From: Candidatus Saccharimonadota bacterium
GTDB taxonomy: Bacteria; Patescibacteriota; Saccharimonadia; Saccharimonadales; UBA4665
DNA length: 32,000 nt
Direction of reading: 5' to 3'
Assembly: GCA_016699955.1 (NCBI GenBank)
Contig: CP064993.1
Coordinates: 480,001 to 512,000 of the forward strand
Position numbers and translations under genes: made by a program. Under the pieces are notes generated by a model. It worked only from the letters and a program-made list of their open reading frames with translations. It was not told the DNA's origin and did not search any database. Of this stretch, positions 10,974 through 31,878 are shown piece by piece (positions within the stretch are counted from its first letter, which is position 1; each line of letters begins with the position of its first letter).

Positions 10974-12497
10974 ATGGCATCACGATTACCAACACCAGGA
11001 GGGGATGACGGTACCTGGGGGGCCATCCTAAACGATTATTTAGCACAGGCACATAAAACCGATGGTTCCCTGAAGGATAACGTCGTCACCGCTGCCGCTT
11101 TGGCTTCAGGTGCAGTAACTGCAGTGGGAATCGCCGATGCGACTATTTCTGAAGCAAAACTTGACTCAGCACTTCAGGTTAAGGTGAACGGTCTTGGCGG
11201 AGGCGGTTCGTTGACGCTTGCCGGTGATGTAACAGGTGCAAGTACAGCAACAGTTGTCGGTAAGGTGAACGGAGTAACTGTCTCGGGTGTACCAACAAAC
11301 GGTCAAGTTCTGACGGCATCTGGTGGTACTGCCGCAAGTTGGCAGACGCCTGCAGCTGGCGGTGGCGTGACTAGTGTAGCTGGTAAGACCGGAGTCGTTA
11401 CGTTGGCTGCTGGTGATGTTGCATCGGGAACCTTTACAGCGGCTCGACTTGGTTCGGGTACAGCAAATAACACGACGTATCTCCGTGGTGATGGCACATG
11501 GGCTGCAGTCTCGGGTGGCGGTGCGGTAACGACTGTTGCCGGACGTACCGGCGATGTTGTTCTCACGAAAACCGATGTTGGCCTTGCAAATGTTGACAAC
11601 ACAAGTGACGCGAGCAAACCTGTTTCAAGTGCAACTCAAACTGCTCTTAATGGCAAATCTGACACAAGCCACACGCACACGCTTGACGCTTTAAGCGACG
11701 TGAGTGCATCTGGAGCTAATGACGGACAGTCGCTCGTCTATAACGGTGGCACTTGGGGTCCCGGCACTGTCGGGACGGGTGGATCTGTCATCGATGCAAC
11801 CACCACTAACAAAGGTGTAGTACAACTCGCCGGAGATCTCGGTGGAACGGCCGCATTGCCAACAGTTCCAGGTCTAGCCGGAAAAGCAGACACGGCTCAT
11901 ACTCACGCTGCAGCTGATATTGCTTCTGGTACAGTAGCGACCGCTAGGCTCGGGTCAGGTACGGCCGATAACACTACTTTCCTACGGGGTGATGGTACAT
12001 GGGTAGCACCAGCGGGCGGCACTGTCGCTGACGCTTCGCCATCGACAAAGGGTATCGTCCAACTTGCCGGAGATTTGGCTGGTTCGGCCACGTCACCTAG
12101 CGTCGCGAAAGTGAATGGTGTAGCAGTGAGTGGAACGCCATCTGCCGGACAAGTCCTGAAAGCCACTAGTGCCTCTGCTGCCTCATGGCAAGCTGACGCT
12201 ACGGGTGGCGGAGGTAGCTCTTGGAATTTTGTATCGGTCAGCGCGAACTCGACCGCCTCAAACGGTGATTATGTACTGGTTGATACCTCGACCGTCGGAG
12301 TGACTATTACCTTGCCTGTCGCTGTAAGCGGTGGAGTTGTGCGGGTAAAACGCATGACAGCCGGTTCTAATAGTGTTCAGATGGTTCCTCAAGCACCAGC
12401 TCTAATTGATGGTTCGGGTGTCGGCTCAGACGTACTGGGTAACCAATGGGATTCAATGGAATATGTCAGTGATGGTACTAACTGGTACAGAGGATAA
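10974..12497 (+). CDS. phage tail-fibre / receptor-binding-protein-like repeat protein (type-1 C-terminal knob)
   Basis: The N-terminus is MASRLPTPGGDDGTWGAILNDYL. Internal motifs are VGLANVDNTSDASKPVSSATQTAL, G(V/I)VQLAGDLGGTA, LRGDGTW (x2), HTH and KVNGV.VSG.P..GQVL (x2). All are typical of actinophage minor-tail/fibre proteins. The Gly/Thr/Ala-rich protein has no signal peptide. Its C-terminus ...VRVKRMTAGSNSVQMV...YVSDGTNWYRG is shared with the 13127-14649 gene. Confidence 0.8.
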   Translation: MASRLPTPGGDDGTWGAILNDYLAQAHKTDGSLKDNVVTAAALASGAVTAVGIADATISEAKLDSALQVKVNGLGGGGSLTLAGDVTGASTATVVGKVNGVTVSGVPTNGQVLTASGGTAASWQTPAAGGGVTSVAGKTGVVTLAAGDVASGTFTAARLGSGTANNTTYLRGDGTWAAVSGGGAVTTVAGRTGDVVLTKTDVGLANVDNTSDASKPVSSATQTALNGKSDTSHTHTLDALSDVSASGANDGQSLVYNGGTWGPGTVGTGGSVIDATTTNKGVVQLAGDLGGTAALPTVPGLAGKADTAHTHAAADIASGTVATARLGSGTADNTTFLRGDGTWVAPAGGTVADASPSTKGIVQLAGDLAGSATSPSVAKVNGVAVSGTPSAGQVLKATSASAASWQADATGGGGSSWNFVSVSANSTASNGDYVLVDTSTVGVTITLPVAVSGGVVRVKRMTAGSNSVQMVPQAPALIDGSGVGSDVLGNQWDSMEYVSDGTNWYRG

Positions 12498-12512: not shown

Positions 12513-12992
12513 ATGCCATTTACAGGAACAGGTACCGGAATACAAAACGCAAATGATGTCTTTTTCAGTGGCGTGGCACAGGATAACGTTTTAAAATTCA
12601 ACAATACAACTGCCAAGTGGAATAACACTCCTGTGGTCGGTTTCTCAGCACTCGCCTATAATGGCGGTCTGGAAACAGTATCTACCCAGACGAGTACTGC
12701 TTCCACGACACTTAACCTTAGTAACGGTAATGTCTTTAATGTCACACTAGCTGTTGCGACGACGACGTTTACATTTAGCGGTGCGACTGCTGGTAGAGCT
12801 TGCTCTTTTGCGGTCTACCTGAAACAGGATGCTAGTGGTAACCGCGCAGTCACATGGCCAGCTTCGGTAAAATGGTCAGGTGGTGCACCGACGTTAACTA
12901 CGAGTGCGAACGCAATCGATATTGTCGTGTTTGAAAGTATCGACGGGGGAACGACGTGGTTCGGCTCTCTTGTAGGTACCAACTTTGCCTAA
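12513..12992 (+). CDS. short fibre-module protein (MPFTGTGTG N-terminal tag + phage-like C-terminal domain)
   Basis: The protein starts MPFTGTGTGIQNANDVFF. The C-terminal part ...FAVYLKQDASGNRAVTWPASVKWSGGAPTLTTSANAIDIVVFESIDGGTTWFG resembles a domain common at the ends of phage tail/fibre proteins. An AAGGGAAGGA Shine-Dalgarno lies upstream. Confidence 0.75.
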   Translation: MPFTGTGTGIQNANDVFFSGVAQDNVLKFNNTTAKWNNTPVVGFSALAYNGGLETVSTQTSTASTTLNLSNGNVFNVTLAVATTTFTFSGATAGRACSFAVYLKQDASGNRAVTWPASVKWSGGAPTLTTSANAIDIVVFESIDGGTTWFGSLVGTNFA

Positions 12993-13052: not shown

Positions 13053-13126
13053 GCGTATACGGGACATATGTTATCCGGGCGATCGTACTTATTCACAATT
13101 AGTAACCTAACAACTGGAGCATATTT

Positions 13127-13679
13127 ATGCCATTCACAGGAACCGGCACCGGCATCCAAAACGCAAACGACGTATTCTTCAGCGTCCTTGCTCAAGACCA
13201 TATCCTTCGTTATGACAACGCTACTGCCAAATGGATTAATATTCCTCTCTCAGTAGCGACAACAGCCCTAACCGATAACTCAGTTACCGAACCAAAGCTA
13301 TCTATTAGCAACGCACCTACTACCAACTACGTCCTTAGCTGGAATGGTTCAGCCATGACCTGTGTTGCTCAAGCCACTGGAGCCGATGCAACCACTACCA
13401 CAAAGGTATTGTCCAACTAGCCGGTGATCTCGCTGGTACTGCTGCTGCACCAACTGTACCAGGACTGGCTGGTAAAGCAGCGACGGTGCATACGCATGCT
13501 CAAGCTGACGTCACAGGACTAGTCGCTTCACTTGCCGCCAAAGAGGCGACAATCACAGCTGGGACTACTTCTCAATATTATCGTGGTGATAAATCATGGC
13601 AAACCCTAGATAAGTCAGCTGTTGGCCTTGCTAACGTCGATAATACTTCAGATGCTAGTAAACCGGTTTCGACTGCGAC
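13127..13679 (+). repeat. copy A of a 553/554-bp near-identical dispersed repeat (5' part of fibre gene)
   Basis: Base-by-base comparison with 21019-21572 shows 2 substitutions (13363 T vs G; 13384 C vs A) and one 1-nt indel (A3 vs A4). Confidence 0.9.
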
Positions 13680-14649
13680 AACTACAGCGCTTTCAGGCAA
13701 GGTGGATAAATCGACAGCGACATCCAAGGGCGACTTGTTGGTGGCAACAGCAGCCTCGACACTTACGCGTCAAGGGGTAGGCCTAAACGGACAGATACTC
13801 ACGGCCGATAGTACCCTCGCTAACGGAATAAAGTGGGCAGATCCAATCGTAAGTTCGGTTGCGGGTAAAACAGGAGTTGTCACGCTCGTCAAAGGCGACG
13901 TCGGCCTTGCAAACGTCGATAACACGTCAGATGCTAGCAAGCCGGTTTCGACCGCCACACAGACTGCTCTTGATTTGAAAGTCGACGAGACCATAAGCGT
14001 GACTGGTGCTACTTCTCTGACCGGTGGCGGCGTCCTTACAGCCAATCGAACTCTTACCCTTGTCAATGACGCGGCCACACCTGGCAACAACAGATACTAC
14101 GGTACGGACGGCACAGGCACAAAAGGGTTTTATACTATTCCGGCAGGTGACCCAAGTATGGGCGGCGACTTAACTGGCACTGCTAGCACTGCGCAGATAG
14201 CTGCCAATGCCGTCACGGCGACAGAAATAGCTAGTAATGCGGTCACGACAATAAAAATTCTTGATAGTAACGTCACTGAACCGAAGTTGGATGTAGCTAA
14301 TAGTCCTTCAACCGGCCAGGTACTGAGCTGGGATGGTACAAACATGGCTTGGGCTGGTGCACTGGCATTTGCATTTACAAAAGTCAGTGTCTCGACGAAC
14401 TATACAGTTACAGCTTCGTTTCAGTATGTGTTAGCAGATGCTACAGCAACTGGGATTACTATTACGCTTCCTGCTCCACAAAATAACGCATATGTACGCG
14501 TGAAACGAATGTCGACTAATGCAAATAGCGTACAGGTTGTGGCTCCGGCTGGTTCTTTTCTTGATGCACCTGCAGTAGGCTCGGACGTACTGAATAACGC
14601 TTATGACAGCGCTGAATACTGGAGCGACGGAACAAACTGGTATAGGTAG
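13127..14649 (+). pseudogene. tail-fibre-like gene split by a 1-nt deletion (ORFs 13127-13420 and 13486-14649)
   Basis: The first 553 nt are near-identical to 21019-21572. The intact paralog has CCACAAAAGG where this copy has CCACAAAGG (A3 at 13402-13404), which shifts the frame. Downstream the second frame continues the same protein (GIVQLAGDLAGTAAAPTVPGLAGKAATVHTHAQADV...). It ends with a type-1 knob (...VRVKRMSTNANSVQVV...YWSDGTNWYR). Confidence 0.8.
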
Positions 14650-14824
14650 AAACTAAGTTATTGTTCGTTGCCGCTGTAGCTGCATGTATGAGTACTGTTT
14701 AGCTGGATGATTTTGTGGATGCAGACTCAACCGGTCGGCTAGTGCCGCAGCTAGTCAGGGAATACCCTCGACTTGTATGGTTGGTAGGTTGGTGGGATGA
14801 ATATGGGTATGTATTATTAATACC

Positions 14825-15654
14825 ATGAGCATAACAACAAGACGGCTACAAAGAACCCAACAGACAACCTCAGCAATCTGGCCAGATGCGACCAATACTG
14901 GTTACAGAGGAACGCTGACAAATTACAGCGGCGGCTCGTCAATTCTCGTTAGCACAACTCTGGTGAATAAGAGGATTTCAACAGCGCTTCAGGTCTTTTC
15001 GGGAGCGACACTCACACTAAACAACTGCTGGGTGGATGGTGGCTTTATTGATGGTGATTATGCCGATCAACCGATCACCCTTACTGACTGCCAGATTGAT
15101 GCTGGAGAGTGGCAGGGGGCGGCGGTGACGGGGTACAACATTCACATTACACGCTGTAACATCACTGGTGCTCAGCATAGCGTTTTGGCCTCAGATAATG
15201 TCACGGTAGAAGACAGTTGGCTACATGATCAGTACGGTGGCCCAGTCGGCAGCTCTTATCACAATAACGCTTTTATTTCGAACGGTGGCAGCAATATCAT
15301 GGTGAGGCATAATCGGTTGGATTGTTCGGTACCGCTGAATGGTTCGGGTGGTGGACCAACCGCCGATGCTTCAATCTTGGTGATTTTGCTACGATGACCG
15401 ATGTCACTTTCGATAACAATCTTTTTATGCCAACAACTGGCGGCTACGGTGGTACATTTGGCTATAATCCGGCTAAGCCATACGGGAGCAACCCGAGCTA
15501 TATTGTAGTTACAAACAATGTCTTCCAGCGCGGCCCGACCGGCATATGTGGTGTCTACGGCACAGTCACGTCTTTTTTGAGTAGTGGAACGGGTAATGTT
15601 TGGTCTAACAATACCTACGAAAACGATGGCACGATCATACCACCTGCCGAGTAA
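14825..15654 (+). pseudogene. right-handed beta-helix (pectate-lyase-fold) protein, frame-disrupted (ORFs 14825-15397 and 15322-15654)
   Basis: It is a paralog of the intact 19010-19921 gene and of 16202-17286 (WPDATNTGY; SWLHDQ...YHNN; NNLFMPTTGGYGG; NNVFQRG). The two ORFs overlap at 15322-15397 and the downstream frame is offset by -1. The junction is likely near CTTGGTGAT (about 15377-15385). Confidence 0.7.
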
Positions 15655-15750: not shown

Positions 15751-16191
15751 ATGAGCAGGTTTGCACAGAGGCTTAGGAGTGCAGTTGGAAAAGGCGGTGT
15801 GCTATATTTATCGCCTATGTCCGGCAGTTATAGCGGCGGTTCGACGGTAAACGTGGCTATCCGTATGACAAGTGGCAGCACGCTTGTTAATACTGTACAG
15901 GCAAATCTTACTTACCCTACCGCTCAGCTGCAATTTGGCAGTATCAGTACTGTCGGTAGTCCGTTTACGACCACAATTCAGAGCAACGGCGGAAGTGGTT
16001 CTGTCCAGCTTGGCGTCGGCATATTGGCTGGTTCGACTTTTGGTGATCAGCTCGTAGGGGTTATTACGTTTACTGCGACTGCTGCTGGTGCTGCGACAGT
16101 GACTTTTAACGCTGGTTCTGGTATTGCCAGAACTGCCGATGCAGTCGATATCTGTACTCAAAAGCGCGGAGCAGCGTATACAATAACCTAA
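15751..16191 (+). CDS. cohesin-like domain protein (MS-R-F-x-Q-R-L N-terminal tag, no signal peptide)
   Basis: LSPMSGSYSGGSTVNVAIRMTSGSTLVNTVQANLTYPTAQLQFGSISTVGSPFTT...VGVITFTATAAGAATVTFNAGS follows the cohesin layout: a first strand with a selected set, then 'Y(D/P)...L.F' and 'i.F.a...G.a.l.f'. Confidence 0.55.
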   Translation: MSRFAQRLRSAVGKGGVLYLSPMSGSYSGGSTVNVAIRMTSGSTLVNTVQANLTYPTAQLQFGSISTVGSPFTTTIQSNGGSGSVQLGVGILAGSTFGDQLVGVITFTATAAGAATVTFNAGSGIARTADAVDICTQKRGAAYTIT

Positions 16192-16201
16192 GGACTAGAT
16201 C

Positions 16202-17286
16202 ATGCTCTATCATAAAATCCAAAAAGCCATCCGTATTCACAGCCTTAGCCCCGTTCTAGTAGTGGCTGGTTGCCTAGCCTTAACAGTTAGCGTGGTTGTC
16301 TGGGCGGCCAATGTCTATACCAGTCTAGAGACAGAAAGTGGTACTGTTGCAACCGCCATAGTTGTCGGTGATGCGTCGGCTTCAGGTGGTCAGGCGGTTA
16401 AGTTCGGGGCGGCTGGTAGCTGTACCTATGCTGGTCATGTACCCGATGGAACTGATGGCTTTGGCGGTTGTTGGCCGGGGCCGAACAATACGGGCGTACC
16501 GGATGGTACTACGCTAACCAACTATACCGGCCCCTGCACAATCACCACCAATAACACTGTAATTGACGCTAAAACGGTTAACTGCGATCTGCATGTTAGG
16601 GCACAAAATGTTACTATCACGAGATCTATGATCAATGGCTATATTGAAACCTCTAATGATAGTGGCACTTCTTATAATTACGCAGTGACAGATAGCACAA
16701 TTCACGTTGCTGATATTAATTATCGCGGTTTATTGTACTCAGACTACATTGCCACTAGAGTGGATGTTTCTGGCGGGCAAAGTATGGCTTGGTGTGACAC
16801 TTGTACAATTCAAGACTCATATCTCCATAACCCACTTGAGGATCCCGAGGAGCAGCTGCCAATCACGCCGCTCATAATTCTACAGTTCGTGTTTCAAAAT
16901 ATGCAAATCTCATACACAATACTTTGTGGTGTAATGTAGTTGAGTACCCTCAACCAGATGGGTTGGATGCCTCGGGATGTTCGGCAAATCAAACTGCCTA
17001 TAGTCATGACGGCGCACCTCCCTACAACAGCACCATAGAGAAGAACCTTTATATGCCGACGACAGGCGGGTACTGCGCTTATGGTGGTTCTACATCTGGA
17101 GACCTAGCTGCGGTACACGATATTGTCTTTAAGGATAATGTATTTAAACGGGGTACAGTGCAAGGCGAAAACAACCGTGGCTTTGTCTGTGGGTATTGGG
17201 GACCGATAACGAGTTTTGATAGTAACCGGCCAGGCAATCAATGGATTAATAATAGATGGGATGACGGCACTATCTTGCTGCCGTAG
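16202..17286 (+). pseudogene. membrane-anchored/secreted right-handed beta-helix protein, frame-disrupted (ORFs 16202-16939 and 16924-17286)
   Basis: An N-terminal hydrophobic anchor (LSPVLVVAGCLALTVSVVVWA) is present. CWPGPNNTGVPDGTTLTNYTG and SYLHNP match the paralogs. After DP (about 16841-16850) homology continues in the -1-offset frame (GAAANHAAHNSTVRVSKYANLIHNTLWCNVV...KNLYMPTTGGYCAYGG). A C-run at 16844-16846 is a plausible site of a 1-nt loss. Confidence 0.7.
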
Positions 17287-17306
17287 AATTGAAGAAAGAA
17301 GATCGT

Positions 17307-18155
17307 ATGAGATTACCAGCTGTTGATTACTTAAAAACAAAATGGAAAGCAAAAATATCGCGAAAAGTGATGGTTGTTATGGCTTTCCTAACAATTCTAG
17401 TCATGCCATCGTTGGTAGTATATATGACAACATCTGAGTCACAACAAGTCCTACCGGCAACGTCGATGGGCAATATGTATCTAGCACCGGAGGCGCCGCA
17501 AGCCAAGCAAGGTGATCCTTTGGCTGTCAACGTGCGGATTGAACCTGGTACGCCGATAGATACAGTGGTCGCAAGGCTACAATTTAACCCCGACCAGTTG
17601 ACCTATACATCGGTTTCGTATCAAAATTCACCATTTGCTACCCAAATACCGATAGTCGTCACCAGCAACCGCGTCACGGTAGAGAGTGCAAAATTTGGTA
17701 ACGGCCCCGTGACGGCTGATTCGTTGATTGCGCAGGTCACATTTACTGCCAAACAAACTGGAGTAGCGGAACTGACGCTAAGTGGTGACGCTGCCTATGC
17801 TGGTGTGGCCACTCACCCGACAATTATGGGCGAGGTAGTACCCATAACTACAAGTAACTCCACGCCAGCTTCGGCTGGGCAACCAGTTACAGGTGTAGCT
17901 AGGCAAACTGAAACGGCATCCAGGACTACTGCTAGCGCACCAGTACAATTAACCAAGTCTCTTCTAACTTCGATAGGTCTTTCCGAATACAAAGCCGCAG
18001 CAGTCGCGCCTGTGTTAGCAATTTGTCTCGGTGTTTGTGTGGCTAGTGGCTTCGGCTATGCGCTTTACCGCTTTCTTGCTAGGCGTCGACGTGTACTGGG
18101 CTTAGATAAAAATAAACCCATTATTCACAAACAGGGAGACAATCATGTCGAATAA
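17307..18155 (+). CDS. cohesin-like domain protein with N-terminal signal/anchor and C-terminal transmembrane anchor
   Basis: The N-terminal hydrophobic segment is VMVVMAFLTILVMPSLVVYM. The cohesin-like core reads MYLAPEAPQAKQGDPLAVNVRIEPGTPIDTVVARLQFNPDQLTYTSVSYQNSPFAT...AQVTFTAKQTGVAELTLSGDA. An S/T/P linker is followed by the C-terminal TM segment VAPVLAICLGVCVASGFGYALY and then RFLARRRR. ATG 17307 is preferred over TTG 17289 because of the GAAGAAAGAAG upstream. Confidence 0.6.
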   Translation: MRLPAVDYLKTKWKAKISRKVMVVMAFLTILVMPSLVVYMTTSESQQVLPATSMGNMYLAPEAPQAKQGDPLAVNVRIEPGTPIDTVVARLQFNPDQLTYTSVSYQNSPFATQIPIVVTSNRVTVESAKFGNGPVTADSLIAQVTFTAKQTGVAELTLSGDAAYAGVATHPTIMGEVVPITTSNSTPASAGQPVTGVARQTETASRTTASAPVQLTKSLLTSIGLSEYKAAAVAPVLAICLGVCVASGFGYALYRFLARRRRVLGLDKNKPIIHKQGDNHVE

Positions 18156-18807
18156 ACTACAGCTGTACTGGAGTAAATTTGCTCTGGCACTCGTTAGCGT
18201 GGTTATGGTGGTTGCAGCCGTACCAACGCCATCGGTGTACGCCGCTGCTTGTACGCCGCCAGGAACCAATTACGGTACGGTAACTCAAACATCCAACATC
18301 AGCTCGGCCGGCACCTACCGCATCTGGACGCGAATGGCGGCAGCTAATAGCACGGACAATACTGTTCTGCTCGAAATCGATGGCAACACTTGCTATGTCG
18401 TAGGTGGTAGCAGCGTCCCGACCTATGCCAGTGGCGCTACAAATTACTTCGTTAACAACAAGACAAACTGGATCAGTAAGACTACTGGCGGGACAAATAT
18501 AGACGTATCTTTTACTACGGGCAATCACACAGTAAAGCTAATCGGCAATGGTCCGGGTGTTGTAATTGACCGAGTGCTGCTTACCAAAGACACTACATGT
18601 ACCCCGACAGGTACTGGCAGTAACTGCGCCAGCATCTACTTTGCGGCTGATATCGATCAAAACGGTAGCGTCAACTTCCTAGACTTTAGCCGTCTCGCGA
18701 GCAAATACAACCAAAGTGGGGGTGGCTTGGGGCGGACCGATATTAACCTCGATGGCACGGTTAGCTTTTTAGACCTTAGTCTGATGGCCAACACCTATGG
18801 CCAGTAA
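18145..18807 (+). CDS. secreted CBM-like domain protein with C-terminal dockerin (two EF-hand-like repeats)
   Basis: The signal peptide is ...LALVSVVMVVAAVPTPSVYAAA. The CBM-like pattern is AGTYRIWTRMAAANSTDNTVLLEIDG...FTTGNHTVKLIGNGPGVVIDRVLL. The dockerin duplicates are DIDQNGSVNFLDFSRLASKY and DINLDGTVSFLDLSLMANTY (about 18645-18804). Its start overlaps the stop of the preceding cohesin gene. Confidence 0.7.
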   Translation: MSNKLQLYWSKFALALVSVVMVVAAVPTPSVYAAACTPPGTNYGTVTQTSNISSAGTYRIWTRMAAANSTDNTVLLEIDGNTCYVVGGSSVPTYASGATNYFVNNKTNWISKTTGGTNIDVSFTTGNHTVKLIGNGPGVVIDRVLLTKDTTCTPTGTGSNCASIYFAADIDQNGSVNFLDFSRLASKYNQSGGGLGRTDINLDGTVSFLDLSLMANTYGQ

Positions 18808-19009
18808 ATATATACTTGCAAAAAACTCCCCCTCAGACTTATGTAGGAGCATACATATGCCGCTTTTTTCGGTTTGGGGTTTACGGGCTCTACCTTCCCC
18901 AGACAAACCGCTTTCTGGTTTACTCTTGGCCGACCCCGAAGACGTTGGGGTTTTCGTAAGTCGAGTCAAGGCGATTGGTCATCTGAGGTGAATTTAATAC
19001 ACTAGGATT

Positions 19010-19921
19010 ATGAGTAGTTTTACCAGACGAATACAACGAGTTCCTGCGGTTTCTCCGCCGGCACTGGGTGGCTGGCCAGATGCGACGAACACTGGACCGG
19101 AAGCTGCTGGCTACACCAACTTAACCGCCTGGACAGACGGCTACCTGATCGGACCGACCTATTCAAACACGGTGATCAGTGGCAAGATTTTCGACGGCAT
19201 TGGGCCTCAGGTGACCGGAAACAACGTAACATTTCGTGGTTGTATCATTCGAGAAACGTATCCCAATGGTTTTTTGTTGCGACTGGACGGCACGAACACG
19301 ACATTCGAAGATTGCCGGTTTACGCCCGCAGTTGGTGTGATGCCCCCGGTGAGTTTGGCGGCCTCATATCAGCAGGGAATCAAAATGATCAATGGTGTCG
19401 GCCTTACGGTCCGGCGATGTGAGTTTTGGGGCTTTGGAAATGCTATCGAATTTGAACCATCGAGCGCAACCCAGGCTAACCCGATTCTTGTAGAGGACTG
19501 TTGGATGCACGACGCGGCCGACCAGAGTGGTGATACTTATCATCACGACGGTATATTGTCGTCTTATGCATCGTCATGGGTGAGTGTTGATCACTGTCGG
19601 ATAGTCTCCGGCGGCAACACTAACGCCATCGCTTTCCAGTCAACTGGAGGCCAATGGTCGAAAATTGTAGTGAACAACTGTTTGCTCGGCGGGTTTGGAT
19701 ATACAGTCAATATTGGCGATAGTTTTGGTGGTAATAACATTACCCTTACGAACAATGTGTTTGACACATCTATAGTATGTGACTGGGGTCCATTTAAAAA
19801 TGATTGGTCAGGGTTTACTGGCACAAATGTATGGCAGGGGAACACTTGGGACACGGGGGGTTACTGGTGGCCAACAGATGGCGCTTCGACTGGCGGGCAT
19901 GGTTCTGACTGGGCAGGATAA
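19010..19921 (+). CDS. right-handed beta-helix (pectate-lyase-fold) protein, intact paralog
   Basis: The N-terminus is MSSFTRRIQRVP...GGWPDATNTGP. Repeating N-x-T-F/V-x-x-C turns are present, with CWMHDAADQSGDTYHHDG and NNCLLGG / LTNNVFD. It has no signal peptide. Confidence 0.75.
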   Translation: MSSFTRRIQRVPAVSPPALGGWPDATNTGPEAAGYTNLTAWTDGYLIGPTYSNTVISGKIFDGIGPQVTGNNVTFRGCIIRETYPNGFLLRLDGTNTTFEDCRFTPAVGVMPPVSLAASYQQGIKMINGVGLTVRRCEFWGFGNAIEFEPSSATQANPILVEDCWMHDAADQSGDTYHHDGILSSYASSWVSVDHCRIVSGGNTNAIAFQSTGGQWSKIVVNNCLLGGFGYTVNIGDSFGGNNITLTNNVFDTSIVCDWGPFKNDWSGFTGTNVWQGNTWDTGGYWWPTDGASTGGHGSDWAG

Positions 19922-19959
19922 GCTAGATTACCGCTAATCTGAGCTATATAATAGTTACC

Positions 19960-20856
19960 ATGAGCAGGTTTACGAGACGGCTTCAACAGGGAGTGAGTGG
20001 CTTTAGCGACAGTTTGCGACCAGCTGCGCCGATAATTACCAGCAGCGCTACTGCAACAACTACTACACCGACCATCAATGGGACGGCTGAGCTTGGGACA
20101 ACTGTAGAGATCAGCATAAATAACCATGTATATTCTAGTTCGACCAACGGTAGTGGAGTATGGTCAATCGTAGTCGTAGATACGCTGACACAAGGCAATG
20201 CCTATACGTTGACAGCTTCAGCTCGCAATGCAGCTGGATATGTTTCTAAAGTTGCAGCAACTCAAAACCTGACAGTCAGCGGCTCCGCTGGCACGTTTGC
20301 TGGTACAAAGGTCGCGATCATCGGTGACTCTTTGACCTATCAGGCAGATAATGGTCAATATGATATACCGGCGGCCTTTACCTCGGCTGGCTGGCCAACT
20401 GATGCTACCTGGTTTTACTCTTGGGACGGCAAGAAAATAGCCGAGTCAGATTGGGGCAATCTTACTACCATGCAAAATATTGCGCAATGTCGTTTGGATA
20501 TTGGCGAGCCAGATGTTTGGGTTATTGCGCTTTGTACAAATAATGGTAGTGACTCGGTGCAAAAAATAACTAGCGATATGCAACTGGTATTTAATGCACT
20601 TGGCTCGTCGGCACGCCTACTCTGGGTCAATAAAGGTGATTGGTGGGTTCCACCCGATTCAGACATTAACAATACTATCGCCTCGATGATATCGTCACGA
20701 CCATATTCAATGTTAGCTGACTGGTACAGTGTTGTCGAAAATACTGCCGATCAAACCAACTGGTGGACAGACGGAACTCACATGACAAGATACGGCTACT
20801 CAATACGCAATAATTTCATCGCTGCTAAATCGGTAGAACTTTTTAACCAGGGATAA
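19960..20856 (+). CDS. bacterial Ig-like domain + SGNH/GDSL hydrolase (esterase/deacetylase-type)
   Basis: The N-terminal tag is MSRFTRRLQQ. The Ig-like segment is PTINGTAELGTTVEISINNHVYSSSTNGSGVWSIVVVDTLTQGNAYTLTASARNAAGYVS. SGNH block I is VAIIGDSLTYQ and block V is WWTDGTHMTRYGY. A TATAAT box at 19947-19952 lies 7 nt upstream of the ATG and there is no Shine-Dalgarno. Confidence 0.75.
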   Translation: MSRFTRRLQQGVSGFSDSLRPAAPIITSSATATTTTPTINGTAELGTTVEISINNHVYSSSTNGSGVWSIVVVDTLTQGNAYTLTASARNAAGYVSKVAATQNLTVSGSAGTFAGTKVAIIGDSLTYQADNGQYDIPAAFTSAGWPTDATWFYSWDGKKIAESDWGNLTTMQNIAQCRLDIGEPDVWVIALCTNNGSDSVQKITSDMQLVFNALGSSARLLWVNKGDWWVPPDSDINNTIASMISSRPYSMLADWYSVVENTADQTNWWTDGTHMTRYGYSIRNNFIAAKSVELFNQG

Positions 20857-20959
20857 TATAACCGAGCTTGGCCTACTTAAAGAGCTGAAATAATCCATTG
20901 ATTAATCTTGGTAGCCCTGAAGACGCTAATGTTGATGGTGTTTTGGTCTGTGCGCTTCC

Positions 20960-21073
20960 AATATCTCTGTTATAATCATAACCAGTTAAACTATTATCTA
21001 AAGGGAAGTGAGACAACTATGCCATTCACAGGAACCGGCACCGGCATCCAAAACGCAAACGACGTATTCTTCA
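20960..21073 (+). repeat. copy 1 of a perfect 114-bp repeat (promoter + 5'UTR + first 18 codons)
   Basis: By direct comparison it is identical to 22981-23094. Confidence 0.9.
20968..20976 (+). promoter_or_regulatory. extended -10 promoter element TGTTATAAT
   Basis: It matches the TGnTATAAT consensus exactly, 42 nt upstream of ATG 21019. It lies inside the ORF-track N-terminal extension (TTG 20908), which is therefore rejected. Confidence 0.5.
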
Positions 21074-21572
21074 GCGTCCTTGCTCAAGACCATATCCTTC
21101 GTTATGACAACGCTACTGCCAAATGGATTAATATTCCTCTCTCAGTAGCGACAACAGCCCTAACCGATAACTCAGTTACCGAACCAAAGCTATCTATTAG
21201 CAACGCACCTACTACCAACTACGTCCTTAGCTGGAATGGTTCAGCCATGACCTGGGTTGCTCAAGCCACTGGAGCAGATGCAACCACTACCACAAAAGGT
21301 ATTGTCCAACTAGCCGGTGATCTCGCTGGTACTGCTGCTGCACCAACTGTACCAGGACTGGCTGGTAAAGCAGCGACGGTGCATACGCATGCTCAAGCTG
21401 ACGTCACAGGACTAGTCGCTTCACTTGCCGCCAAAGAGGCGACAATCACAGCTGGGACTACTTCTCAATATTATCGTGGTGATAAATCATGGCAAACCCT
21501 AGATAAGTCAGCTGTTGGCCTTGCTAACGTCGATAATACTTCAGATGCTAGTAAACCGGTTTCGACTGCGAC
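21019..21572 (+). repeat. copy B of the 553/554-bp near-identical dispersed repeat
   Basis: See 13127-13679. This copy carries A4 and keeps the reading frame. Confidence 0.9.
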
Positions 21573-22887
21573 GCAGACTGCCTTAAACGCCAAGGCTAGC
21601 ACAACAACAACCATAACTGGGACTACTTCACTAACAGGAGGCGGCGACTTATCTGCTAACCGAACACTAACGCTTGTCAATGACAACGCAAGTCCAGGTG
21701 CTGATAGGTACTATGGTACAAATGTTGGCGGTACGAAGGGTTGGTATGCACTTGCAGGTGGTGGCTCATCAGGGCAGTTTGGCTACATCTTCCTTGACGA
21801 TCAAGCCGGTGCTACTGACGATGATAAACTGACCGCTGCCATTGCCGCACAGCAATCTACCAACGGTATGCCACCTATTGTACTAGGTGCCAGGAGTCAT
21901 TCCTTTAACCAGACTCGTACTCTATACTCTGGGCTTAAGCTTATAGGCCAATCTACTGGTCCAAAAAACCTTGAACAAAACCCTAACTTTGTAACCTCTC
22001 GTATTGTACTAGGTGCGGCAGTCTCATCAGGCGCAAGCAGTTGGTGGGTGACCCCAGGAGGAAACTTATTTGACATATACATGGCAGATTTTGCTGTAAA
22101 CGGTAACGAAGGCGCCTCTGTCCACCAGTTCATGGATGTAAACAGTGGAACACTATACGCGTGTGAGTTCCATAGCTTGGCATTTGACTTCATGCGATCA
22201 GTATTGGGACGCAAAGATCGCACCTTCTTAATGACACAAGTTGTACTTTCTGGCCACTGGACAGCAAATAATCTGTGGGATACGCAGTTTCACCTCGGTG
22301 GGTCAGATAACTCACTGTGGATGGGTGGCATGATTAACATGGGACCATCAGCATCCCCAGCACAGACAGGAACCTATGCCGATAATGATTACGAATTTAT
22401 GTTTAACAATATGTCAAAGACAAATGTAGGGTACATATACATGACTGCACTTAACGGATGGCGAGGTATTCGTGTTCAAGGAACTTCTTCTTTCCTGACG
22501 TTCTATGGTGGTGTATATGAGGGTTACAACGCGGGGACACCTGCACCGGGTACAGTTATACGTCTTGAAGGTGGAGTTGGTTCATTCTATGGTCCTAACA
22601 TCGGTCAGGGAATGGGCAGCCCGGATGCGGCTGAAGGTGGTCTTGTTCACATCACCGGTGGTGAATGGAACTTCTACGGACCGATATTTTACCGAGGTAA
22701 CATGACAGACACAACCCCTTGTATCTACCAATCTGGGGGCCGTGTTCACGTCACAGGGGCAACACGCCGCCAGAGTGAGACTTGGACTGCACGCCCTGTA
22801 CTAGATACTGGAGCTGCAGGTGGAAATACAGCTGGTACAGGAACCTACACGACATACGTTCCCGATCTTTCTATGAACGTCACCTAA
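21019..22887 (+). CDS. tail-fibre-like protein with tailspike/depolymerase-like beta-helix C-terminal domain (mosaic gene)
   Basis: The protein starts MPFTGTGTGIQNANDVFF and carries the fibre motifs GIVQLAGDLAGTAAAPTV, HTHAQADV, YYRGDKSW and VGLANVDNTSDASKPVSTATQTAL. The C-terminal 365 aa or so (AGATDDDKLTAAIAAQQ...) are homologous to the C-terminus of 23040-24491. An AAGGGAAGTGAG Shine-Dalgarno is present. Confidence 0.8.
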   Translation: MPFTGTGTGIQNANDVFFSVLAQDHILRYDNATAKWINIPLSVATTALTDNSVTEPKLSISNAPTTNYVLSWNGSAMTWVAQATGADATTTTKGIVQLAGDLAGTAAAPTVPGLAGKAATVHTHAQADVTGLVASLAAKEATITAGTTSQYYRGDKSWQTLDKSAVGLANVDNTSDASKPVSTATQTALNAKASTTTTITGTTSLTGGGDLSANRTLTLVNDNASPGADRYYGTNVGGTKGWYALAGGGSSGQFGYIFLDDQAGATDDDKLTAAIAAQQSTNGMPPIVLGARSHSFNQTRTLYSGLKLIGQSTGPKNLEQNPNFVTSRIVLGAAVSSGASSWWVTPGGNLFDIYMADFAVNGNEGASVHQFMDVNSGTLYACEFHSLAFDFMRSVLGRKDRTFLMTQVVLSGHWTANNLWDTQFHLGGSDNSLWMGGMINMGPSASPAQTGTYADNDYEFMFNNMSKTNVGYIYMTALNGWRGIRVQGTSSFLTFYGGVYEGYNAGTPAPGTVIRLEGGVGSFYGPNIGQGMGSPDAAEGGLVHITGGEWNFYGPIFYRGNMTDTTPCIYQSGGRVHVTGATRRQSETWTARPVLDTGAAGGNTAGTGTYTTYVPDLSMNVT

Positions 22888-22980: not shown

Positions 22981-23094
22981 AATATCTCTGTTATAATCAT
23001 AACCAGTTAAACTATTATCTAAAGGGAAGTGAGACAACTATGCCATTCACAGGAACCGGCACCGGCATCCAAAACGCAAACGACGTATTCTTCA
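22981..23094 (+). repeat. copy 2 of the perfect 114-bp repeat (promoter + 5'UTR + first 18 codons)
   Basis: It is identical to 20960-21073. Confidence 0.9.
22989..22997 (+). promoter_or_regulatory. extended -10 promoter element TGTTATAAT
   Basis: This is the same element as 20968-20976, 42 nt upstream of ATG 23040. Confidence 0.5.
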
Positions 23095-24491
23095 ATGTCC
23101 TTGCTGATGGCCAGATCCTTGAGTACAACAGTACGACTGCGAAATGGGTTAATGCCGCAAATACCAGCGACCCAGTACTTGGTGGTGATCTGACTGGCAC
23201 TGCCAGCAATGCTCAGATAGCTGCCAATGCCGTCGGCACTACTCAAATCGCTGACGGAGCAGTAACCGAACCAAAACTAGGCGCCAGCAACGCGCCGAGT
23301 ACCAACCAAGTACTGAGCTGGGATGGCTCTAATATTACCTGGGTGACACAAAGCACGGGGGTAGATGACGGAACAAGGTTGCTTGATTCATTTGCTGGTG
23401 CGACCGACGACGACAAACTGACTGCTGCTATTGCCTGGCAGCAGGGACATTCTCGCATGCCTGCGATTCGCTTAGGTTCGCGTATTCATACGTTTAACCA
23501 AACGAGGCAGCTGTATAGTGGCCTCAAGATTATTGGTACACCGGCAGGTCCTCGCAACCTCGAGCAAAGTGGCGGTGTGTTTGTACCGACCAGGATCAAC
23601 CTCGGAGCAGCCATATCGTCTGGTGCGAGTTCATGGTGGGTCACACCTGGAGGAAACTTGTTCGATATATATATGGCTGATTTTGCGGTTTCCGGTAATG
23701 CGGGATCATCCGTACACCAATTTATCGATGTCACTACGGGTTCCCTATATGCCTGCCAGTTCCATGCACTGAGTTTCAACTTTATGCGGAGCGTTTTTGG
23801 ACGCAAGGATCGCAAATGCTTGGTGACGCAAGTTATATTTTCTGGCCACTGGACGGCAAATAACCTGTGGGACACACAGTTCATGCTCGGTGGTGCTGAC
23901 TGTAATCTCTGGATGGATGGTTTCTTAAACATTGGCCCGAGTTCGAGCCCTGCACAAACCGGTACCTATGCAGACAATGACTACGAACTCATTTTTGACA
24001 GCCTGAGCAAGACCAACGTAGGTTATATCTTTATGTCAGCTCTCAACGGCTGGCGTGGCCTCAAGGTTTCCGGCAGTGCCGGTCACGGACTTCGTTTTTT
24101 CGGCGGAACCTACGAAGGCTATAAAAGTAGCAACGACAACCTCGCCGCACCAGGTACGGTTATTCGACTAGAGGGAGGCAAAGGAGCATTCTTCAGCCCA
24201 AGCCTCGGCCAGGGCATGCAAAGTCCAGATGCTGCCGAGCTAGGCCTCGTACACATAACTGGTGGGGAGTGGGCGTTTTACTCACCGACTTTTTATCGCA
24301 CACCAGCTGCCGATACTGTGCCGATGATCTATGTTTCTGGAGGCCGTGTATTGGTAGAAGGTGCTACACGCAACGACGACCAAGAAGCTTGGACAACACG
24401 TCCGAAGTATCTTCTCGGAGGGGGAGTGGCGACTGGTCCGAACAGTGGTGAAAATGTTTTCTACTGCCCAGATATGTCGATGGTTCCATAA
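23040..24491 (+). CDS. short fibre-module protein with tailspike/depolymerase-like beta-helix C-terminal domain
   Basis: The N-terminus is MPFTGTGTGIQNANDVFF, followed by GGDLTGTASNAQIAANAV and VTEPKLGASNAPSTNQVLSWDGSNITW. The C-terminal domain begins AGATDDDKLTAAIAWQQ and includes SSWWVTPGGNLFDIYMADFAV, SGHWTANNLWDTQF and APGTVIRLEGG. It is paralogous to 21790-22884. Confidence 0.8.
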   Translation: MPFTGTGTGIQNANDVFFNVLADGQILEYNSTTAKWVNAANTSDPVLGGDLTGTASNAQIAANAVGTTQIADGAVTEPKLGASNAPSTNQVLSWDGSNITWVTQSTGVDDGTRLLDSFAGATDDDKLTAAIAWQQGHSRMPAIRLGSRIHTFNQTRQLYSGLKIIGTPAGPRNLEQSGGVFVPTRINLGAAISSGASSWWVTPGGNLFDIYMADFAVSGNAGSSVHQFIDVTTGSLYACQFHALSFNFMRSVFGRKDRKCLVTQVIFSGHWTANNLWDTQFMLGGADCNLWMDGFLNIGPSSSPAQTGTYADNDYELIFDSLSKTNVGYIFMSALNGWRGLKVSGSAGHGLRFFGGTYEGYKSSNDNLAAPGTVIRLEGGKGAFFSPSLGQGMQSPDAAELGLVHITGGEWAFYSPTFYRTPAADTVPMIYVSGGRVLVEGATRNDDQEAWTTRPKYLLGGGVATGPNSGENVFYCPDMSMVP

Positions 24492-25943: not shown

Positions 25944-27017
25944 CGTATAGAACTCAAGACCTTTGCAACATTGCAGCAGGCACCTGCATCTGTATGCCTA
26001 AGTGTACTCGCTTCGTGTTGTAGTAGTCGAGATACGCAGTAAGCTTATCTCGCTGGCTTTGGAGCGGTACGCTCCTGCGCCAGTAGTATCCAATACATTC
26101 TGTCTGGATAGTTCGGTTGTATCGCTCTATGTGAGCATTGTCATTGGGTCGGTGCAATCGGGAGTGTCTAGTGGTAATACCTCGTGAGCGAAGCACTTGC
26201 TCAAAGTAGCGTCCGTACTCTGGACCATTGTCTGCCTGCACCATGGAAATAGTAAAGCCCCATTGGTCTTGTGCTTCCAGGACCGCCCGTGCAGCAAGCC
26301 CTGGGCTGAGCCGGGTTGCTAGAATGACGTACGTCATTCTAGTGAATAGGTCAATGACCGTGTAGTAATACAGACGCTTACCGCTGTGTGGATCGACATG
26401 GTGGATAGTATCTGTCTGTACGAGCTCACCAGGCCCTGTGGCTTGTGGACGTCTCGGGTTATCTGGTCGTACTCGCTTCTTCCTGGCTCCATCAAAGCAG
26501 TAGTGTCGCCGTAATATACGGCGCACACTGCTAAGGCTAACAATGGCTGTGCCGTAGGCATCGCCAACTCGTGTCAGGTGGTACCACACCACCTCAGCAC
26601 AACGTTTGAGTCTATGTCGTAATTCAAGTATCCGAGTCATGAGTTGCTCGCCTATTGCCTGAGGGCTTGTATGGGGCCGAGATGTGTACGTAGGGATGAG
26701 CCATGTACATCGCAGTAGGTGGTTTGCTTTGCTGTACACACGGGCTGGGCGGTTGGGATTGTCGAACTGAACATGCTCATTGAGCTTGTCCCACTTCTGC
26801 TTCCATCTCCAGATGGTGGTACGGTGTACACCGCAACGGTTGGCAACAATCTGCAAGGGTATTCCCTCACACACAAGCAACCGCATTGCCAAAGCTCTCG
26901 CTTTAGGTAGGTTAGGGTTGATAGAATAGGCCATGGTAGGCTCCTTCCTGTTAGATGTAATGCTCTTACAGTTTAGGATGCCTACCTTTTAGGTTGCAAA
27001 GGTGGTGAGTTAGTACG
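25944..27017 (-). mobile_element. IS481-like (IS3/IS481 superfamily) insertion sequence, about 1074 bp, with imperfect terminal inverted repeats and candidate 6-bp target-site duplication
   Basis: The left end CGTATAGAACTCAAGACCTTTGCAAC (25944-25969) matches the reverse complement of the right end (26993-27017), CGTACTAACTCACCACCTTTGCAAC. The inner 11 nt are perfect, and 19 nt match with 2 mismatches. GCAACA directly flanks both ends (25938-25943 and 27018-27023). Confidence 0.65.
25954..26934 (-). CDS. DDE (rve/integrase-core) transposase, single-ORF IS481-like
   Basis: The N-terminal HTH is IVANRCGVHRTTIWRWKQKW. The DDE core reads VQTDTIHHV ... VQADNGPEY ... NDNAHIERYNRTIQTE. The stop codon lies within the left IR, as is common in IS481-type elements. 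Confidence 0.85.
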   Translation of the reverse strand: MAYSINPNLPKARALAMRLLVCEGIPLQIVANRCGVHRTTIWRWKQKWDKLNEHVQFDNPNRPARVYSKANHLLRCTWLIPTYTSRPHTSPQAIGEQLMTRILELRHRLKRCAEVVWYHLTRVGDAYGTAIVSLSSVRRILRRHYCFDGARKKRVRPDNPRRPQATGPGELVQTDTIHHVDPHSGKRLYYYTVIDLFTRMTYVILATRLSPGLAARAVLEAQDQWGFTISMVQADNGPEYGRYFEQVLRSRGITTRHSRLHRPNDNAHIERYNRTIQTECIGYYWRRSVPLQSQRDKLTAYLDYYNTKRVHLGIQMQVPAAMLQRS

Positions 27018-31828: not shown

Positions 31829-31878
31829 AATTTTATTATACAGCACACCAAGTGCGTGCTAATCCAACAAGACGGTCT

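Follow-up and report, generated by a model that had tools for sequence, protein, structure and literature searches.

A conserved cohesin–dockerin cassette that may dock a non-catalytic lectin on a membrane anchor in Saccharibacteria

Does a Saccharibacterium fasten a sugar-binding protein to its own membrane by means of a cohesin and a dockerin? The question is raised by three genes on the forward strand of a 32,000-nucleotide stretch of DNA (the window, meaning the whole stretch analysed here) from a Candidatus Saccharibacteria metagenome-assembled genome, whose products are identical to NCBI proteins on a 1.21-Mb contig that are all annotated as "hypothetical". The attachment of Saccharibacteria and other bacteria of the candidate phyla radiation (CPR) to the host bacteria on which they live, and the way in which they feed, are largely unexplained. 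The first gene (15751..16191, 146 amino acids (aa), IPL85_02565) encodes a small free cohesin in which a short N-terminal motif, here called the MS-tag, precedes a single cohesin domain, and which lacks both a Sec signal and a transmembrane helix; the second (17307..18155, 282 aa, IPL85_02580) encodes a membrane-anchored cohesin protein; and the third (18145..18807, 220 aa, IPL85_02585) encodes a secreted lectin that resembles carbohydrate-binding modules of families 6 and 35 (CBM6/35) and bears a C-terminal dockerin. All three open reading frames stand where an earlier reading of the same DNA (the initial annotation) had placed them. We think it probable, though well short of assured, that they form a non-cellulosomal cohesin–dockerin module of Saccharibacteria, kept as a conserved cassette, in which a membrane anchor serves as the docking site of a non-catalytic lectin. 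The observation from which we started is confirmed, and as regards the parts and their arrangement its interpretation finds support, while binding and function are what we infer.

The C terminus of the 220-aa protein matches Pfam Dockerin_1 (PF00404) over aa 168–216 with a score of 33.8 bits (E 4e-8; cut-off 22.9). The profile and the loop positions define two repeats, aa 169–190 (DIDQNGSVNFLDFSRLASKYNQ; 18649..18714) and aa 199–220 (DINLDGTVSFLDLSLMANTYGQ; 18739..18804), which are identical at 11 of 22 positions. Across 54 relatives, loop positions 1, 3, 5, 9 and 12 are occupied in the first repeat by D (54), N or D (28 and 26), D or N (30 and 23), N or D (27 and 19) and D (54), and in the second by D (54), N (53), D (53), N, D or S (37, 9 and 6) and D (53). 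The initial annotation had claimed a type I dockerin, and the profile search and calcium-position alignment that it proposed thus returned a match above the cut-off and the coordinating D/N residues in both repeats. Positions 10–11 (F-L), 17–18 (A-S/N), 20 (Y) and 22 (Q) are nearly identical between the repeats, and two near-symmetric EF-hand-like repeats are associated with type I dockerins and dual binding (PMC12484212). In the AlphaFold2 (AF2) model, helices are placed at aa 178–186 and 208–218 with low predicted local distance difference test scores (pLDDT). Homologues of the whole protein number 110, come from Saccharibacteria-type contigs, and nearly all carry a precomputed PF00404 match.

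Ahead of the dockerin lie a signal peptide (aa 1–33; 18145..18243) and a beta-sandwich (aa 34–162; 18244..18630), an arrangement in which the initial annotation's CBM-like domain behind a signal peptide is upheld. The signal peptide includes a hydrophobic segment at aa 13–31 in the hydropathy scan and ends in VYA followed by AACTPP, where cleavage is predicted; an A-x-A-like site is kept in alignment A2. Reading "AAAC" as a lipoprotein motif was ruled out on our own inspection, as relatives show AAPC or AASC. The beta-sandwich is modelled with pLDDT 85–95, and a Foldseek search of the PDB returned CBM35 and CBM6 structures (3wnp, 5x7g, 2cdp and 2w46) with E-values between 3e-4 and 1e-3, probability 1.00 and a target template-modelling score (TM-score) of about 0.5. 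An alignment of relatives shows four invariant cysteines together with invariant Y58, W61, R63, D79, W109, H128 and D142. No Pfam CBM family matches the protein, GH115_C stays below threshold at 18.1 bits versus 24.1, and no catalytic domain was found in the 220 aa by Pfam or Foldseek. The domain therefore shares with CBM6 and CBM35 (2cdp, 2w46, 2w47, and the CBM35 of cycloisomaltooligosaccharide glucanotransferase, 3wnp) the beta-sandwich fold and a set of aromatic and acidic residues whose invariance would fit a sugar site; unlike those modules, it has two probable disulfides and belongs to a stand-alone protein with a dockerin rather than to an enzyme as an appendage.

The predicted receptor for this lectin is encoded immediately upstream. 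Its 282 aa are counted from an ATG, in agreement with the NCBI annotation, and the longest open reading frame begins at a TTG at 17289. Pfam Cohesin (PF00963) matches aa 64–164 marginally, with 24.3 bits against a threshold of 24.1 (E 4e-5), and a search with the small-cohesin profile (hmmsearch, E 4e-15), supported by hhalign, extends the domain to approximately aa 51–169 (17457..17813). Pfam Cohesin also matches five of six syntenic membrane orthologues (best E 8.7e-7) and reaches 31.0 bits in a long orthologue at L007 (here and below, L-numbers label the loci of relatives, and P-numbers are protein cluster representatives). Compared as profiles, the membrane-cohesin and small-cohesin families are homologous (hhalign probability 98.7 %, E 4e-16); the membrane-cohesin profile found no match among PDB sequences. 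The domain is preceded by an N-terminal hydrophobic segment (aa 21–40; 17367..17426) behind a basic stretch, either a signal-anchor or an uncleaved signal peptide, and followed by a C-terminal transmembrane helix (aa 230–254) with an RRRR stop-transfer at aa 259–262 (together 17994..18092). This is the topology that the initial annotation had described, and hydropathy, sequence and the Pfam match all agree with it. In all syntenic orthologues, as in the protein of the window, two hydrophobic segments flank the cohesin, with a basic N-flank and a basic C-tail that are predicted to be cytoplasmic. The cohesin of this bitopic protein is therefore predicted to lie beyond the cytoplasmic membrane, with a tether at one end or at both. 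In longer forms of the family (479–563 aa), immunoglobulin (Ig)-like domains and Ser/Thr/Pro-rich spacers stand between the cohesin and the transmembrane helix.

The small free cohesin had to be recognised by other means. It has no Pfam match of its own at E<=1, and its profile found one weak match among PDB sequences (7urp, E 0.007); because sequence alone is too diverged for profile searches of the PDB, a fold search was needed to identify the cohesins. The AF2 model (pLDDT 90.3, predicted TM-score 0.82) places strands over aa 16–145 with pLDDT above 89, and the cohesin domain was assigned to aa 16–146 (15796..16188). Its best Foldseek match in the PDB is 6kgf (E 2.2e-11, TM-score 0.76, root-mean-square deviation 2.3), with 2xdh and 2vn6 also matched; 49 of the 50 top PDB matches listed are cohesins, and among the solved cohesins matched are 6kgf, 2vn6 and 2ccl, which were co-crystallised with dockerins. 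On the model, the small protein has the nine-stranded jelly-roll fold of cohesins. Pfam Cohesin is found in 19 of 32 small-cohesin orthologues at E<=0.01 (best E 8.9e-9), and the MS-tag is present in the family alignment, so that the initial annotation's second cohesin with its tag has stood up. The small cohesin has 42 homologues from Saccharibacteria-type contigs, and its sequence type (A1) extends to 5890 cluster representatives at E<=1e-3. Among the 150 best of these representatives, about 80 % have an N-terminal transmembrane segment or signal and 22 also have a dockerin. One of them, P0195 (2276 aa), contains nine cohesin stretches by HMMER and eight in a recount, and the family, to which P0167, P0188 and P0191 also belong, includes scaffoldin-like multi-cohesin proteins; cohesins of this type occur in Sec-signal proteins with several cohesin stretches and with C-terminal dockerins. 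In the small cohesin itself, no transmembrane or hydrophobic segment was found in the first 60 aa, and the sole flagged segment (aa 101–119) lies inside the beta-sandwich; the protein may be soluble, as the initial annotation had it. As a separate observation, a viral protein in BFVD (A0A7T8ERM8, 243 aa) has a fold very close to that of the small cohesin (Foldseek E 6e-10, query TM-score 0.77).

That cohesins and dockerin belong together is argued above all by their genomic coupling, which we examined on the contigs of homologues and on 77 loci from species-representative genomes with family hidden Markov models (HMMs) and a hydropathy filter. The order small cohesin, two-transmembrane cohesin and CBM-dockerin protein recurs in L001, L003, L005, L006, L008, L011, L014, L015 and L017, that is, in at least nine other genomes, and because the genes that flank the recurring cassettes are differing, unrelated housekeeping genes, the cassette itself is the conserved unit. 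In five cases the membrane-cohesin and dockerin genes overlap or abut, by 11 nucleotides in the window (ATGTCGAATAA) and by 1–17 nucleotides, as called, in L001, L003, L006 and L017. The dockerin gene at 18145 has a Shine-Dalgarno-like GGGAGA box 5 nucleotides before its ATG, and a promoter and terminator scan gave no signal beyond shuffled expectation. A longer two-transmembrane cohesin (479–563 aa) followed by a CBM-X-dockerin protein is found with a small cohesin in L015 and L017 and without one in L007, L012, L013, L016 and L018, and in L032–L039 the dockerin protein is convergent with a two-transmembrane cohesin. A cohesin gene is adjacent at 16 of 17 distinct loci whose cargo relative bears a dockerin, but at no more than two of the 11 loci whose paralogue lacks a dockerin (0–2; Fisher p 6e-7 to 7e-5). 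These dockerin-less CBM paralogues (L020–L030, about 500–570 aa) end instead in another beta-sandwich, "...GRYNLTYRA...". We regard the adjacency counts as the strongest evidence available that the two modules may work together.

On this basis we propose that, after Sec export, the dockerin of the lectin would bind the membrane cohesin in a calcium-dependent manner, and that the non-catalytic lectin would thereby be held on the outside of the cell membrane or envelope. The near-symmetry of the two dockerin repeats may allow docking in either orientation, in a dual binding mode. The docked lectin would then bind glycan, most likely host-cell or matrix polysaccharide, alongside the products of neighbouring genes; this type of target is favoured because those neighbours are beta-helix, Big_13/SGNH-like and tail-fibre-like proteins. 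The small cohesin would serve as a second receptor for the same dockerin, exported by a route that recognises the tag MSRFARRLQ.

Several points weigh against this proposal. The pairing of dockerin with cohesin is drawn from domain identity and gene neighbourhood, and the neighbourhood counts are not phylogenetically independent. The Cohesin score of the membrane protein exceeds the Pfam threshold by just 0.2 bits, the dockerin part of the AF2 model is of low confidence (pLDDT 45–55), and the CBM assignment comes solely from fold comparison (E about 3e-4, TM-score about 0.5). The small cohesin may never meet the secreted dockerin, because it has no recognisable export signal. Finally, in short membrane-cohesin orthologues (209 aa in L001, 203 aa in L006 and 191 aa in L014) the cohesin is flush with the membrane with almost no linker, and in a walled monoderm this geometry would put the complex beneath the surface. 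The initial annotation had spoken of a cell-surface scaffold with a dockable cargo: the reading as scaffold and cargo gains support, in that the cassette is conserved, its last two genes overlap and the dockerin goes with an adjacent cohesin, but the cell-surface location is uncertain, as the cohesin of the short orthologues abuts the membrane.

These points bear on two other explanations. In the first, which we consider unlikely, the domains are real but unpaired: the dockerin would bind a cohesin encoded elsewhere or act as a module for calcium or another ligand, and the cohesins would be Ig-like spacers or would bind something else. Peer and colleagues are said to have reported in 2009 that non-cellulosomal cohesin-like and dockerin-like modules are widespread, mostly without demonstrated partners, which speaks for such an explanation. 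Since the A1-type cohesin family is large, with its 5890 representatives, other cohesins may also exist in this genome. Against unpaired domains speak the gene overlap and the adjacency kept across genomes with different flanks, as well as the coincidence, in the paralogues, of dockerin loss with the lack of a neighbouring cohesin. A scan of the close relatives L008–L011 gave one dockerin locus per genome, namely this one, with patterns that are biased towards the family. Within the 32-kb window, the family-HMM scan likewise found no other cohesin or dockerin match.

A second explanation accepts that the pair binds and makes its job internal, as a membrane–wall tether or as a lectin that holds the cell's own wall or extracellular polymeric substance (EPS) polysaccharide; we judge it to be quite improbable. 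Self-tethering keeps some credit because the short orthologues, with transmembrane segments at both ends, place their cohesin flush with the membrane; in addition, the cargo has no catalytic domain, and in several genomes the cassette lies among housekeeping genes. The 479–563 aa forms argue the other way, as their spacers are what would be expected for projection through a wall, and so does the position of the window's cassette inside an island of fibre-like and putative glycan-degrading beta-helix proteins. An internal role is also less readily reconciled with findings in Southlakia, a cultivated Saccharibacterium in which glycan-binding envelope proteins are essential for epibiotic growth and have glycans of the host as their proposed targets (PMC10633639). 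Whether SEML1_0315, the essential "dockerin" of Southlakia, is an orthologue was considered separately, and orthology was rejected: that gene is 2784 nucleotides long (about 927 aa), and it is described with Ig/fibronectin type III (FN3)-type fold-domain matches and with no Pfam family listed (PMC10633639).

Docking of a lectin on a membrane cohesin, as we propose it, invites comparison with cellulosomes and amylosomes (Clostridium/Acetivibrio, Ruminococcus flavefaciens and R. bromii), in which a dockerin-tagged secreted part likewise plugs into a cell-bound cohesin. The likeness extends to the type I dockerin with its two near-symmetric EF-hand-like repeats (PMC12484212), to the non-catalytic CBM-dockerin proteins that those systems also include, and to CohG of R. 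flavefaciens (4n2o/4wkz), which is a free single-cohesin protein like the one described here and of which 4n2o is among the Foldseek matches. The differences are nonetheless substantial. The window holds no multi-cohesin scaffoldin and no dockerin-bearing enzyme; anchoring is by transmembrane helices and not by S-layer homology (SLH) domains or sortase; the neighbouring enzymes bear the MS-tag rather than dockerins; and the organism is an epibiont with a contig of roughly 1.2 Mb, not a fibre degrader. A cellulosome in the strict sense was therefore rejected, because there is one cohesin per protein, the window's only dockerin is on a non-catalytic protein and transmembrane helices provide the anchor. 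The initial annotation had likewise placed the locus among glycan-active enzymes and adhesin-like fibres rather than cellulases.

An adaptor and anchor hierarchy of the cellulosomal kind is nevertheless present in this lineage. The multi-cohesin relatives point to it, and at L031 (5959–9562) three tiers are encoded in a row: a CBM-X-dockerin protein (319 aa), a signal-cohesin-dockerin adaptor (441 aa) and a signal-cohesin-transmembrane anchor (429 aa). The two dockerins of L031 are nearly identical, and proteins with both a cohesin and a dockerin also occur in L045 and L040/L041. By their domain architecture, other Saccharimonadia thus appear to show cellulosome-like logic. Closer in scale to the window's cassette are a cohesin of Archaeoglobus fulgidus (2xdh; match 6 in the Foldseek search of the small cohesin, E 3.6e-10) and the modules of Clostridium perfringens glycoside hydrolases (2jh2, 2vo8 and 2w1n, also matched), which are similar in having few modules, the same folds and owners that are not cellulose degraders. 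Relative to those pairs, the cohesin here is a membrane protein with two transmembrane segments, the dockerin is borne by a small lectin without catalytic activity rather than by a toxin or a glycosidase, and the genes form a conserved overlapping operon in a CPR/Saccharibacteria lineage, with a second free cohesin that carries a non-Sec tag.

How this free cohesin might reach the outside turns on its MS-tag. In the window protein the tag reads MSRFAQRLRS (15751..15780), with the start codon as its first position. Across the family the consensus is MSRFARRLQ, and M1, S2 and R7 are nearly invariant in alignment A1. The AF2 model shows a short helix at aa 3–9 with low confidence. An in-frame stop lies 7 codons before the ATG of the small cohesin, so that an N-terminal extension is not possible, and stops lie 4–11 codons before each tag examined. 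In the window, tags start at 14825, 15751, 19010 and 19960 on the forward strand and at 31828 on the reverse strand, and elsewhere at L003:3502, L008:8365, L011:3440 (reverse strand) and L011:11983. The pattern M-S-x-x-x-R-R-L/I-Q heads proteins that look extracellular, namely beta-helix, Big_13/SGNH-like, GH16 and alginate-lyase-like proteins as well as the small cohesin, and the GH16 and alginate-lyase-like carriers are located near the cassette in other loci. Paralogous beta-helix proteins have an ordinary N-terminal transmembrane or Sec-type signal where the tag would be, and some small cohesins start with other non-Sec N-termini, such as KLYLGTTEVQKAFLG.

The tag is followed by polar, glycine-rich residues with no hydrophobic region, and a Sec or twin-arginine translocation (Tat) signal was ruled out for lack of an h-region. 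A double-glycine leader, which the G-G/A that precedes the domain in many small cohesins might suggest, found no support on our own reading, as other tag carriers do not have it and the consensus of such leaders is a different one. The Arg and Leu codons show synonymous variation, which makes it unlikely that the tag is conserved as an mRNA feature. The genes with tags also differ in their starts: they have no Shine-Dalgarno box, and a TATAAT-like box ends about 6–9 nucleotides before the ATG (for example "tataatagttaccATG" and "tataataaaattATG"; the regions concerned are 19935–19962, 31828–31855 on the reverse strand, 14800–14827 and 18985–19012). This combination suggests leaderless or near-leaderless transcripts. 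The non-tag neighbours at 10974, 18145 and 23040, in comparison, have GGAG-type boxes. Because cohesins of the same type are mostly extracellular by their architecture, the tag is a candidate for an alternative export or assembly signal, and a literature search found no published description of such a tag. One could go further and suppose that it is a new Sec-independent signal for export or assembly that directs the free cohesin, along with the beta-helix, GH16, alginate-lyase-like and SGNH-like enzymes, to one shared structure outside the cell, where the free cohesin would recruit the dockerin-lectin. The enzymes would then bear the tag and the targeting CBM the dockerin, an "inverted cellulosome" for attacking or holding host-cell glycans; as a whole, we offer this scheme tentatively and regard it as doubtful.

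The surroundings of the cassette in the window form an island of fibre-like proteins and putative enzymes. Besides beta-helix proteins, it includes tail-fibre-like repeat proteins and a Big_13 protein whose GDS(L) and DxxH motifs we read as SGNH-like. Five phage-tail-fibre-like proteins (10974–12497, 12513–12992, 13486–14649, 20908–22887 and 23040–24491) have DUF5907 and PTR repeats, and 12513–12992 matches tail-fibre family phrog_9017 at 1e-22. Pfam detects no dockerin on the neighbouring enzymes in the window. Between the first and second cassette genes stands an inserted beta-helix gene (16202–17286), which is frameshift-split, as is its paralogue at 14825–15654, by comparison with an intact 376-aa homologue (L005:3571–4701). 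Frame switches located by tblastn fall near 15334/15382 and 16846/16879, and the split genes either are true pseudogenes or owe their frameshifts to indel errors in a long-read assembly. A direct repeat of 555 bp, 99–100 % identical, occurs at 13126–13679 and 21018–21572 and brackets a 7.9-kb segment that contains the cassette; a 1-nucleotide indel near 13404 splits the gene of the first copy into 13127–13420 and 13486–14649. Since the near-identical copies lie inside two fibre-like genes, a recent duplication or recombination among fibre genes is suggested. An insertion sequence (IS)-type transposase with an rve integrase core and a helix-turn-helix (25954–26934, reverse strand) lies just downstream of the island.

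That the cassette is a phage-derived receptor-binding module, in which the cohesin would be the adaptor of a tail-fibre-like assembly and the MS-tag a tailspike-like attachment peptide, is highly improbable. In its favour, strong PHROG tail-fibre matches flank the cassette (the phrog_9017 match and repeats in 10974–12497, 13486–14649 and 20908–22887), the beta-helix neighbours are depolymerase-like, some small cohesins replace the tag by N-termini such as KLYLGTTEVQKAFLG that may be phage-protein-like, and a viral cohesin-like fold exists (the BFVD protein mentioned above). Against it, none of the three cassette proteins has a PHROG match, and neither the small cohesin nor the dockerin protein has relatives on the viral contigs of IMG/VR. 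Genes for a capsid, terminase, portal or tail tube are absent from the window, where housekeeping genes flank the island, and the dockerin protein and membrane cohesin have the Sec and transmembrane topology typical of cellular envelope proteins. A prophage or phage origin of the cassette was accordingly rejected.

The domains themselves are not new, because automatic annotation already labels some homologues "cohesin domain-containing" or "dockerin type I domain-containing"; no NCBIfam family matches any of the three cassette proteins. A full-text literature search found no published description of the three-gene cassette of Saccharibacteria, of the two-transmembrane cohesin receptor, of the lectin cargo or of the tagged free cohesin; the parts are of known kinds, and their layout is unusual and minimal. 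In summary, a compact and conserved lectin-docking module would be a concrete candidate for a device of attachment or glycan targeting in Saccharibacteria. It would also widen cohesin–dockerin biology to a single-cohesin receptor anchored by transmembrane helices, with a non-catalytic lectin as cargo, in a genome of about 1 Mb. The three parts are small, and could be produced directly to study their binding or adapted into an orthogonal docking pair. Should the MS-tag be a true export or assembly signal, it would be a sign that CPR bacteria have a secretion route not recognised before.

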